Shown: positions 1-3,000 of the stretch, piece by piece
How positions within the stretch are numbered: the stretch's first letter is position 1
Layout: every line of letters starts with the position of its first letter
Source: a virus
Taxonomy: Duplodnaviria; Heunggongvirae; Uroviricota; Caudoviricetes
Length of the DNA: 10,130 bases
Virus record (IMG/VR): IMGVR_UViG_2713896788_000013
Reading direction: 5' to 3' (one strand)
Position numbers: made by a program

Positions 1-3000
1 CTGCCGTTGGTGTTCATGCCCGAGGCAGATAGCCTCAAGCACCCGCAGCAATTCTACTTAACTATCCTTTTCCCGCAAACCGTTTTTATCCCCAGCGGCA
101 AATCGAATACACCACCAGCGCCACCGCCATCGCAATTCCTACCGTTGTGAATGCTTCAGGCCAGGTCATTGATTCACCTCCTGCGGCGGTTCTGGTAGCG
201 ACATCCAGTGGGTTGCTTGCCTAAGATCATTACCCGGACTAACTGCTATACCTCCGCGCCGGAACGTGCCTCCGAGATAGCGTGCGGAATATATTAATGG
301 CCCAGCCTCGCTATCGATATTCATCGAAATAAGCACGTTCTGGCTCTTTTCAGGCATTCGCTCAGTACAGCTTATCCAGCCATCCAGAGTTATCGGAGAT
401 CTGGTTGACGTTTCCGAGATTTCCCGAAAATTGTTGGTTGACGAATTCTTATTTTCCCGAAAGTTTCCGGCCTGAAGCATGGCGACGCGGCAGGCGTTCC
501 AGCCATCAGCATATGTTTTAGTTACACCGTCGAGATGGCAGGTAAGCAAATCCATTTCATCAGGCACTACCATTGCTATCGGCTCTGCTTCCAGTGATGC
601 CAGCGCGATACGAAACACATTAGCCAGCAGGCTGTCTGAAGACTTGTTATCGTGCGCCGAGTCGCTCAGGAAGCCTGTGATGTATGATTTAATCTCCGCG
701 CGTTCTCTGGTAATAGTGCTCATATCAGTTTTCCTTATACGGATTAATTTTATTGTGCAGTGCGCTGAATGATTCCCATGTCACATCGGTATATAGCTCA
801 ATAACTGGTTCAAATGTCCTTCCAATTATCCAGACCAGTAATAGCGGGGATATCGGTATCATCAACACTATAAACAGAATGAAAAACAGAAACTCTGTTG
901 TTCTGCTCTTTCGTGGGTAATTTTTTTCTAAATAATGTTTCATTTCTTACCGCCCTTTCGGGCGGCCTCCTGATGTTCTGAGGGTGCAGGAATCCCTCCG
1001 GTTAAGGATTTAATAAAAATCGTTTCTGATTTAAATCTTCAGTATTTAGTTGTTAGTTGGTTTATCGCCTTTATGCTTCAGCCTTATTTCGCAACCAGAC
1101 ACAAACCGGGCCATCTTCCGTATCATGAATGGAACCAATAAACCAGCCATCGCCCTCTGGTCGTTCCGGTTCCCATGCAGAAATATCAGCATCACACGCA
1201 TCAAGGTCAGCACATCCTTCATCTCTGAAGCAGAGGACGTATTGAAGATTATTTTCCTCCATCCAGGCGTTAAACTCTTCCGTTGAAATATATTCCCGAC
1301 CATCACAGAATTTTTCATATTCAGGATGTGTCCAGTAGCCATATCCGTCACGAACTACCGGCATTTCTTTAATTTCACTCACTGTTAACCTCCTGCAACG
1401 CTACACGATACGCCTTCTTTATCCACGCCTTACTGCCATATAATTTCGTCTTCATAATAAACACACCTGCACGACTCGCCGATATCCCCGGACAGGTTAA
1501 CAGCACAGCATCCACCACACGGTTATGCTTCCGAAACTCCATTACAGTACTGCTGATAACCACCTGCCCCACCGGGCCGTAATCCTGATACAGGATTTTC
1601 ACGCAGACACCCTCCTGTCGAAATAAACGTAGTTATTCACTATGCGCAGCGGCATGCCTAATTTTCTGGCAATTTCCCTTCTTTGCATGCCTCTCTGATG
1701 CAGTTGCCGCGCCAGCTCAATATCACGCTGAGAATATTTTGCCGACGGGTGAAAATCACCACGTAACATCATGCTGATGCCCAGCTCCCGTGCCTTCGTT
1801 CTCACTGCCGCTTCAGTTCGTCCGATAAGTGCGCCAACGCTTTTTACCTTCATCGTTCCCGCACACTGCCGGAGTATCATGATTTCCGCCCGGCACCACG
1901 TCTTCCACCCACTCACCGCTGCTGTTCTCTGGTGGCGGTAATATCCCGGAGAATATCCCGGCACTTGTTCAGCTCCCGCAGCGCGGCGCAGACTCGCTCC
2001 CACTTCTGAACCTGACCTTTTGCCCGGCGCAGCTCGCGGTTAGCCACATGCAGCGATGGTAAAATCAGACCATCCGGATGCTTTCTGGTGAACGACGGCT
2101 GTGACTGCACTGTGACCGCCACACTTTCCGTTTTTATTTCTTCCTGTGTTTCCGCTTCCCCGACTGGTAACGCAACACCTGCTGGCTGAGGAAAGGCTTT
2201 ACCATCCGTTTCCGTTATGGATGCGGCTTTCGGCTCTGCCGGTAAATCAGCGCCCGGTATGCAGTACCGAAATTTACCGCCCTGATTCACGCGAATCAGA
2301 CGCCCTTTGCTGATTGCCATGGCCAGTGATGAATTCGCCCGGCGGGAGGTAATCCCGAACATCAGTGCCAGCTCATCCGCCGTTTGTGGGCCATGATGTT
2401 CAATCGCCTCAGTCAGCATTTGCGCTGTCACTTTCGGTACCGGTGACACTGGTTCACTTTCACCAGTCTGAGTCAGCCACCACATCGACCCCTTGTTATC
2501 CGCTTCACCACGGCGCTTCAGTTTCCACAGTTCGTTGACAGCATCTTCGCGGCTGATTCCAAGGCGCGATGCCACTACCTGTGAAGAGGCTTTTTTCAGT
2601 GCTTTCAGTGCGTCAAATACGGTTTCCATTAATATTTCCTCCGACAAAATCGTTTCTCAGATTCAAATAAAACCAGCTGCCTTCCGGCGTTCGTATTCCT
2701 GTTTCAGCCGTTCAATTGGCGTTGGCCCTTGCGGGTGTTTCGCCCCTTCCAGTTGTCGTCGCACTGGCGGAACACTCATCCCGTTACCAACATGCTTTGC
2801 CCATTTCGTCAGTTGCCGTTCCGCAAGTCGTTTTAACTCACCTTGCGTCATCTGGCGCTCAATCCCTCTGGTACGCATTTCGAGGCAGATGTGGTACAGC
2901 ACAGGCTGTGGCCACGGGTATTTATCACTCCCGTCGTATCGCCAGGATTCATTGCGCCAGCGCCGGTACTCTTCCATCACGGCATCCACCGTAAGACCAA

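Follow-up and report, generated by a model that had tools for sequence, protein, structure and literature searches.

A portable acidic module, phrog_1372, encoded in the early operon of a defective Rac-like prophage of Escherichia coli: a possible decoy for nucleic-acid-handling host proteins

The window analysed here (the whole 10,130-nt stretch of DNA in IMG/VR virus record IMGVR_UViG_2713896788_000013) is a defective Rac-like lambdoid prophage of E. coli, and the subject of this study is a gene on its minus strand encoding a strongly acidic protein of 103 amino acids (aa). The gene runs from a GTG start (1382–1380) to a TAA stop (1073–1071) and overlaps an upstream 75-aa open reading frame (ORF). 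The features that define it and place it in an early transcript are as follows.

1071–1382, minus strand: coding sequence (CDS) of the 103-aa acidic protein, a stand-alone phrog_1372 module (phrog_1372 match, PGAP CDS, dN/dS)
1389–1394, minus strand: Shine–Dalgarno sequence AGGAGG, 6 nt from the GTG start (read from the sequence)
1375–1382, minus strand: 8-nt overlap, GTGAGTGA, between the start of the acidic gene and the stop of the upstream 75-aa ORF (phrog_1001) (read from the sequence)
4834–4863, minus strand: PR-like sigma-70 promoter candidate, TTGACT-18-TAAACT, upstream of a cro-like gene (consensus match only)

The encoded protein, MSEIKEMPVVRDGYGYWTHPEYEKFCDGREYISTEEFNAWMEENNLQYVLCFRDEGCADLDACDADISAWEPERPEGDGWFIGSIHDTEDGPVCVWLRNKAEA, contains 25 aspartate and glutamate residues (24.3 %) against 8 lysine and arginine residues, with a net charge of −17 and an isoelectric point (pI) of 4.12; its residues 54–80 form the acidic peptide DEGCADLDACDADISAWEPERPEGDGW. 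Assuming a background of 11.5 % for the two acidic residues, the binomial probability of finding at least 25 of them in 103 is about 2e-4. The acidity exceeds chance: at −0.165 net charge per residue the protein stands apart from 172 neighbouring ORFs of at least 75 aa taken from 44 related loci, only one of which reaches even −0.12, and the remaining ten proteins of the window lie at about −0.05 to +0.12. An initial annotation had described a strongly acidic 103-aa ORF at these positions, leaving its strand unstated, with an excellent Shine–Dalgarno sequence and a GTG start, and all of this is borne out, the AGGAGG (1394–1389) lying with a 6-nt spacer ahead of the GTG codon on the minus strand.

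The minus-strand order is PR-like promoter, cro-like gene, YdaT-like gene, O-like gene (with a DnaT domain), P, DUF1627 gene, the gene for a helix–turn–helix (HTH) protein, 75-aa ORF and acidic gene, so that the acidic gene is the last in a closely spaced or overlapping early run in which the O and P replication genes precede it. Since no terminator is predicted within this run of genes, from the promoter at 4863–4834 to the acidic gene, ‘early operon’ is a fair label, and the early placement proposed in the initial annotation is further supported by the PR-like promoter, the gene order and the tight spacing and overlaps. The early transcript that includes the acidic gene probably starts at the PR-like promoter candidate, and the 8-nt start/stop overlap suggests that the acidic gene is translationally coupled to the 75-aa ORF.

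We consider the ORF a genuine gene because PGAP annotates the identical CDS in E. coli O157:H7 (WP_001289673.1), because the ratio of non-synonymous to synonymous substitution rates (dN/dS) against homologues is 0.09–0.34, because its family has 747 representatives and because it occurs widely in E. coli; it is under purifying selection. A match to the gene is found in 976 of the 5,426 complete E. coli genomes (18 %), its sequence recurs unchanged (100 % identity) in many STEC genomes, the 651-bp segment 1000–1650, with the acidic gene inside, shows the same complete identity across many O157, O26 and O121 genomes, and a Rac-SA53 protein is 92 % identical to the acidic protein. A scan of IMG/VR loci returned 80, which are near-identical E. 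coli prophages.

The acidic protein is an ordinary member of phrog_1372 (E=4.1e-56, 190.6 bits, residues 1–102 against profile positions 55–158), a family that is already catalogued with no function assigned and for which we count 747 representatives (E≤1e-3, clustered at 50 % identity). The same motifs are present in mEp213 gp45, PY54 ORF48, D6 orf96, gp62/66 of Klebsiella phages LASTA/SopranoGao and the Rac-SA53 protein. The source names of the acidic protein and its relatives are all ‘hypothetical’ or ‘prophage protein’. No Pfam family matches the acidic protein at E≤0.01, a Pfam scan of 64 homologues one by one at E≤10 gave nothing above noise, NCBIfam and PADLOC gave no match, and neither phmmer nor a profile search matched a chain sequence in the PDB. 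An AlphaFold2 model from a 64-sequence alignment (mean predicted local distance difference test score, pLDDT, 80; predicted template modelling score, pTM, 0.70) has helices at 20–26 and 34–43, strands at 46–52, 80–88 and 91–99 and a long loop at 53–79, with low confidence in the acidic part of the loop (pLDDT <50 at residues 56–60). The predicted fold is thus a compact alpha/beta unit with two helices on a three-stranded sheet and five conserved tryptophans. Foldseek found no PDB match to this model at E≤1e-3 and, in BFVD, only uncharacterized members of the phrog_1372 family, so that the modelled fold is without an annotated relative; structure prediction, suggested as a check in the initial annotation, therefore revealed no similarity to a known enzyme or structural family. 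The core W-x-P-E-x-P...GWF had raised the suspicion of a diverged DUF551 domain, which was rejected when hhalign gave a probability of 0.1 % against the DUF551 protein of the window (a weak test, with a single-sequence template).

Conservation and charge were assessed family-wide on 246 domain copies, which gave the following segments of the protein.

1323–1358, minus strand: N-terminal motif V-x-R-D-x-x-G-x-W-T-H-P, residues 9–20, with near-invariant R11, G15, W17, H19 and P20
1185–1226, minus strand: acidic loop, residues 53–66, with aspartate or glutamate in 50–85 % of members at most positions (low model confidence)
1089–1175, minus strand: core W-x-P-x-x-P-x-G-x-G-W-F-x-G-S-I-H-D-T-E-D-G-x-V-C-x-W-L-R, residues 70–98 (246-copy conservation, alignment, model)

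Among these copies the median net charge is −15 and the median pI 4.25, and 133 distant representatives still have a median net charge of −14. Acidic residues occupy about 13 alignment positions in 60 % or more of the members, and these positions include 54–56 and 66 in the loop and 87, 89 and 90 at a hairpin tip; the loop 53–66 varies in sequence while its composition stays acidic across the family. Beyond the N-terminal motif the near-invariant residues are W40, W70, P72, P75, G77, G79, W80, F81, I85, G91, W96 and R98. In the model the core folds as a beta-hairpin (strands 80–88 and 91–99) with an acidic tip, D87-T-E-D90, where H86, D87, T88, E89 and D90, along with C94, are conserved at 84–87 %. 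The Providencia phage homologue has alanine at position 86, and Klebsiella plasmid homologues read HPREEG or HDTGDG at the tip; since H86 and the tip residues are individually replaced in otherwise conserved members, we argue against catalysis by an H86/DTED motif. A zinc site formed by H19, C26, H86 and C94 was likewise rejected, C26 being only 50 % conserved and H86 and C94 lying on opposite faces of the sheet according to the hairpin register.

Diversity was sampled in annotated phage records and by a scan of one genome per species. The family occurs in phages of gamma- and beta-proteobacteria, with hosts among Escherichia, Klebsiella, Erwinia, Yersinia (PY54), Pectobacterium, Serratia, Providencia, Pseudomonas, Burkholderia, Ralstonia, Vibrio and Nitrincola, and in many Salmonella prophages; the genome scan found homologues in Enterobacterales, Pseudomonas, Achromobacter, Shewanella and Bowmanella. 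Unexpectedly, homologues of roughly 40 % identity are present on 2,029 PLSDB plasmids, 1,759 of them predicted to be conjugative and 1,496 from Klebsiella. Six plasmids were sampled for gene context and three plasmid homologues for charge, and two settings were seen.

L091 8336–9291, L093 5340–6295 and L096 3629–5306, Klebsiella IncFII plasmids: finO-repA cluster
L092 7664–9312, L094 2943–5306 and L095 2120–5306, F-type tra operons: traW-traU insertion

On the Klebsiella IncFII plasmids the order is traI-traX-finO-...-DUF2726-[module]-PLD-family nuclease-repA, and the start of the module overlaps the DUF2726 stop by 4 nt, an extra gene intervening in plasmid L096. DUF2726 is a Vsr-like PD-(D/E)XK domain (PMC3424549); the IncFII protein that carries it has an N-terminal membrane anchor and is very basic (pI 10.4), and the overlap is compatible with pairing of a nuclease with its inhibitor. 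A cluster of membrane protein, DUF2726 protein, module homologue and PLD-family nuclease is present in all three such Klebsiella plasmids sampled, and no account of its function was found in the literature. In F-type tra operons the module lies between traW and traU and overlaps the traU start, six genome loci being alike; four to six small uncharacterized ORFs stand between traW and traU in the Citrobacter, Enterobacter and E. coli operons, with the module as the last of them.

The module sits in early or accessory regions of all mobile elements examined. In mEp213, gp45 directly follows N in the pL operon, with cIII, kil, erf and abc2 downstream, a position that in lambda belongs to ral. PY54 ORF48 stands after RdgC and before an exonuclease and Dam, D6 orf96 before the ppp phosphatase, the Providencia homologue overlaps an upstream methyltransferase gene, and the Pseudomonas and Vibrio homologues are near methyltransferases, an integrase and SSB. 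Annotated neighbours (145) describe an early accessory or recombination region with integrase, excisionase, ParB-HTH, RecT, ERF and RdgC, together with a DnaQ-like exonuclease, a deoxynucleoside monophosphate (dNMP) phosphatase, orphan C5 and N6 DNA methyltransferases and Ead/Ea22. No neighbour gene is conserved, clustering of 249 neighbour ORFs having produced lineage-specific groups only, and the phrog_1372 gene moves as an independent mosaic module. A conserved pairing with the upstream 75-aa ORF was rejected, given that the upstream genes in mEp213, PY54 and D6 are unrelated to one another and to this ORF and that the Providencia phage has the methyltransferase there.

Fusions extend this picture, in that many of the 150 best representatives listed are proteins of 150–520 aa with the module at either end. 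It is joined to a Lar restriction-alleviation domain in three independent fusions (P0143, a complete ORF on its contig, P0224 and P0234), to a C-terminal Tad2-like domain (PF11195/DUF2829) in P0182 (a complete ORF on a single 1.7-kb contig), to an Rv2179c-like 3′–5′ exonuclease (DnaQ-like) in P0208 and P0210, to DHH/DHHA1 in P0181, to RdgC in P0248 and to a DUF551-type phrog_60 region in P0229, and it is naturally duplicated in tandem in P0135. The commonest partner (18 of 72 partner pieces) is a helical domain of no known family with the motif ERxRQ..EGWTxEHDD..WPW..WKPS..KAGALILAEIERLDR, for which even a profile search found no Pfam or PDB relative. In this, phrog_1372 behaves as a portable, self-contained module that mobile elements join to nucleic-acid-directed and anti-defence domains.

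The helical partner is itself another uncharacterized portable phage module. It spans about 95 aa with invariant E15, R16, R18...D30...W71, P72...K79, P80...E97, E99, R100 and R103, and occurs in P0173, P0156, P0172, P0226, P0228, P0151, P0213, P0218 and P0264; many longer PHROG families (6628, 9763, 11504, 9434 and others) match it with their C-terminal part. In three cultured phages the module bears a conserved C-terminal extension of about 65 aa (..LKxxxLxKHxxxxxAAxxYFxACxxGxxRxxAxxxxxRIRxAT..), carried by the following loci and also by P0148, P0166 and P0174.

L003 3498–4025: PY54 ORF48
L143 2501–3022: SopranoGao gp66
L086 4001–4522: LASTA

An apparent module–Tad2 fusion in Klebsiella phage SopranoGao was rejected, the 91 % tblastn match being a read-through past the stop codon and the C-terminal extension of gp66 being different.

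We tentatively favour the reading, possible rather than probable, that the acidic protein is not an enzyme but a decoy or inhibitor, acting like a DNA mimic on a host protein that handles nucleic acids, and unrelated to Ocr or ArdA. The protein would be made early after induction or infection, and its negative surface would then occupy the nucleic-acid-binding site of a host nuclease or of a restriction or other DNA-handling defence protein. The analysis shows the gene, its place in the operon, its family, the acidity throughout that family, the lack of a known fold, the spread over mobile elements and the fusion partners; that the protein binds a host protein, which protein this is and that it inhibits by mimicking charge are what we infer, and a role in blocking host defence is plausible. 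We favour a decoy or inhibitor because of the conserved negative charge, the fusions to Lar and Tad2-like domains, the ral-like position and, on plasmids, the overlap with a basic nuclease-fold gene, and we favour a non-enzymatic one because sequence and fold reveal no similarity to an enzyme or structural family and because H86 and the hairpin tip are replaceable. The high negative charge density by which DNA mimics are recognized is present (−17 over 103 aa, a family median of −15, the extreme tail of the neighbouring ORFs). The anti-defence role put forward in the initial annotation is in this way partly supported, along indirect lines: the conserved acidity, the acidic loop, the post-N slot and the Lar and Tad2-like fusions.

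Several observations weigh against the decoy reading. The near-invariant residues are mostly tryptophan, glycine and proline, with R11, H19 and R98, and not carboxylates; the three plasmid homologues are only mildly acidic (net charge −4 to −8, pI 4.75–5.25); and in the six sampled plasmids the module is not in the leading region (by oriT, ssb, psiB or ardA), where plasmid anti-restriction genes concentrate, but between traW and traU or finO and repA. These three points weaken the case for DNA mimicry, and since the plasmid homologues are mildly acidic, the family does not need a high charge for its fold or for every one of its functions. Additionally, no canonical anti-defence family is among the recurrent neighbours, the Lar and Tad2-like fusions are each known from single metagenomic contigs and were not found in cultured phage genomes, and the literature yielded no description of the phrog_1372 domain, no characterized homologue and no direct functional evidence.

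Considering the protein families that surround the module and are fused to it, it could instead serve the element's own machinery for DNA recombination, replication or processing, as an accessory or adaptor subunit that binds and regulates or recruits nucleases, RdgC or annealing proteins and does not target host defence. The fusion partners are mostly nucleic-acid enzymes or binders (Rv2179c-like exonuclease, DHH/DHHA1, RdgC), the recurrent neighbours include RdgC, exonuclease, RecT, ERF, ParB-HTH, dNMP phosphatase and SSB, the acidic gene follows the O and P replication genes in the window, and plasmid copies sit in the tra operon, an operon expressed during DNA transfer. A generic adaptor is, however, not expected to be so acidic, no single partner gene is conserved next to the module, and the module is dispensable in well-studied relatives, lambda, P22, HK97, N15 and P1 being absent among the matches listed (40 of the 60 phage matches) while D6 and PY54 carry it; we consider an adaptor function unlikely, if worth keeping in mind. 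The near-invariant aromatic residues W17, W40, W70, W80, F81 and W96, taken with R11, H19 and R98, would also suit a nucleotide pocket, so that the module might be an immune-signal nucleotide sponge like Tad1, Tad2 or Acb2 in which tryptophan and phenylalanine stack on the bases and R11, H19 and R98 contact phosphate; it has one Tad2-like fusion (P0182), and its DHH/DHHA1 and DnaQ-like exonuclease partners belong to enzymes that can degrade nucleotides or oligonucleotides. That a protein with a net charge of −15 to −17 would bind anionic nucleotides is disfavoured, the sole Tad2-like fusion is on one 1.7-kb contig, the modelled fold resembles none of Tad1, Tad2 and Acb2 and no entry of the PDB, and the conserved tryptophans may merely form the hydrophobic core of a small domain, all of which makes a sponge improbable to us.

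The plasmid data bring in an inhibitor of the immunity or antitoxin kind, directed at a nuclease that the element itself encodes (for example the DUF2726 protein or the IncFII PLD-family nuclease); the prophage copy would then be an orphan immunity gene. In agreement, the module on Klebsiella IncFII plasmids overlaps the DUF2726 stop by 4 nt and is followed by the PLD-family nuclease gene, the very basic DUF2726 protein (pI 10.4) contrasts with the acidic module, and module–nuclease fusions exist. We nevertheless give this explanation only a small chance, given that neither the window nor the sampled phage and genome neighbourhoods contain DUF2726, that another gene sits between DUF2726 and the module in L096, that copies in the tra operon have no adjacent nuclease, and that the N-terminal membrane anchor of the DUF2726 protein leaves its topology relative to a cytoplasmic partner ambiguous. 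Least probable is a small enzyme or metal-binding protein with a site at H19, H86-D87 and E89/D90. The conservation of H19 (99 %), H86 (86 %), D87 (86 %), E89 (87 %), D90 (84 %) and C94 (87 %) would fit such a site, but H86, D87, E89 and D90 each give way to other residues in members that are otherwise conserved and widely distributed, C26 is conserved in only 50 %, H86 and C94 would be on opposite faces of the sheet judging from the predicted secondary structure, and no enzyme fold was matched.

Other features of the window complete the picture of the element. The plus strand carries a LexA/cI-type repressor, the DicF small RNA (sRNA), dicB, a RecE fragment and an integrase fragment, placed as follows.

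7244–7295, plus strand: DicF antisense sRNA (Rfam RF00039, 75 bits, E=1.6e-15)
Within the ORF 7365–7658, plus strand: DicB-like ORF with METLLPNVNTSEGCF..., a DUF1482 ORF being next
7936–9713, plus strand: RecE-family fragment (414-aa ORF) and truncated, frameshifted tyrosine integrase (pseudogenes in the O157:H7 TR01 annotation)

DicF, the DicB-like ORF and DUF1482 form a cell-division-inhibition cassette of the Qin/Rac type, and the prophage is called defective because of the RecE-family fragment and the truncated, frameshifted integrase. Two runs of N occur, at 4234–4309 (76 bases, interrupting the YdaT-like gene) and 7168–7217 (50 bases, just upstream of DicF), and ORFs that span them contain stretches of X. 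The minus-strand ORFs called at their longest extent, 1599–2003 (134 aa) and 2663–3325 (220 aa), are larger than the genes that PGAP models there, 282 nt for the HTH DNA-binding protein and 462 nt for replication protein P, and the true starts of both genes are probably internal to these ORFs. A 127-nt spacer beyond the acidic gene is followed by the DUF4014 and DUF551 genes. No intrinsic terminator was found 3′ of the acidic gene; a GC hairpin at 950–966 is not a canonical terminator, because it has no U-tract. The hairpin (GCCGCCC-GAAA-GGGCGG), within the minus-strand segment 943–975, has a 7-bp GC stem and a GAAA tetraloop and lies between an AGGAGG (about 970–975) and the DUF4014 ATG (943), in a 141-nt spacer with a folding z of −2.6; it may draw the distant Shine–Dalgarno sequence near the DUF4014 start codon, or it may stabilize the mRNA.

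What is chiefly new is how broad the family is, that about 2,000 plasmids carry it, how promiscuously it is fused and that no known fold matches it. Conserved, under purifying selection, promiscuously fused and with no Pfam model or known fold, the family makes a clear candidate for a domain entry of its own, even if its function differs from that suggested here. It is conceivable, though rather doubtful, that phrog_1372 as a whole founds an anti-defence family of new fold in temperate phages of gamma- and beta-proteobacteria and about 2,000 plasmids, many of them of the Klebsiella IncFII lineage, which neutralizes a widespread host nuclease or defence system by nucleic-acid charge mimicry or by sequestering an immune signal and is also deployed as a portable module fused to Lar-like, Tad2-like and nuclease domains. 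The family reaches widely, into 18 % of the complete genomes of E. coli, into many prophages of Salmonella, into Pseudomonas, Burkholderia and Vibrio phages and into the plasmids, which are mostly predicted conjugative and from Klebsiella. If it is an anti-defence or nuclease-inhibiting module, it would bear on how prophages and resistance plasmids become established in new hosts; a compact inhibitor for biotechnology would also be possible.

Finally, the decoy or inhibitor that we favour may be set beside known systems. Tad2 and Acb2 sponges are likewise small phage accessory proteins with many conserved aromatic residues, and one natural fusion joins the module to a Tad2-like domain (PF11195); the module differs in having no sequence or fold similarity to them and in a strongly negative charge, which argues against nucleotide binding. 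Colicin immunity proteins, barstar and NuiA are acidic proteinaceous nuclease inhibitors, and the Klebsiella IncFII module resembles them as a small acidic protein whose gene lies directly downstream of, and overlaps, a basic nuclease-fold gene (DUF2726); the analogy is functional only, with no relation in sequence or fold and with a DUF2726 pairing that is confined to one plasmid lineage and absent from the window. Lar/RalR of the Rac prophage and lambda Ral share with the module both the type of element and the early-gene niche, and the module is fused to Lar-like domains in three representatives. It has no homology to the Lar zinc ribbon (CxxC...CxxC, PF14354), and Pfam detects no Lar domain in the window protein, so that the fusions imply joint deployment and not the same mechanism. 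With Ocr (T7 gp0.3) and ArdA the acidic protein shares its small size, its very acidic character (pI about 4.1), its early expression from a mobile element and a charge that is kept while residues vary. The initial annotation had seen no direct similarity to either protein, and this is upheld by sequence and fold searches: no homology to Ocr was found by Pfam, by phmmer or profile search of PDB chains or with the 64 homologues, the modelled fold is not the all-helical one by which Ocr forms its DNA-shaped dimer, and neither an ArdA Pfam domain nor a structural match to the three-domain ArdA fold was detected. Its fold has no annotated relative, the protein is unrelated to Ocr, ArdA or any other solved DNA mimic, and if it does block defence or inhibit nucleases it would represent a structurally new class of inhibitor, a new structural variant among the small acidic early proteins.

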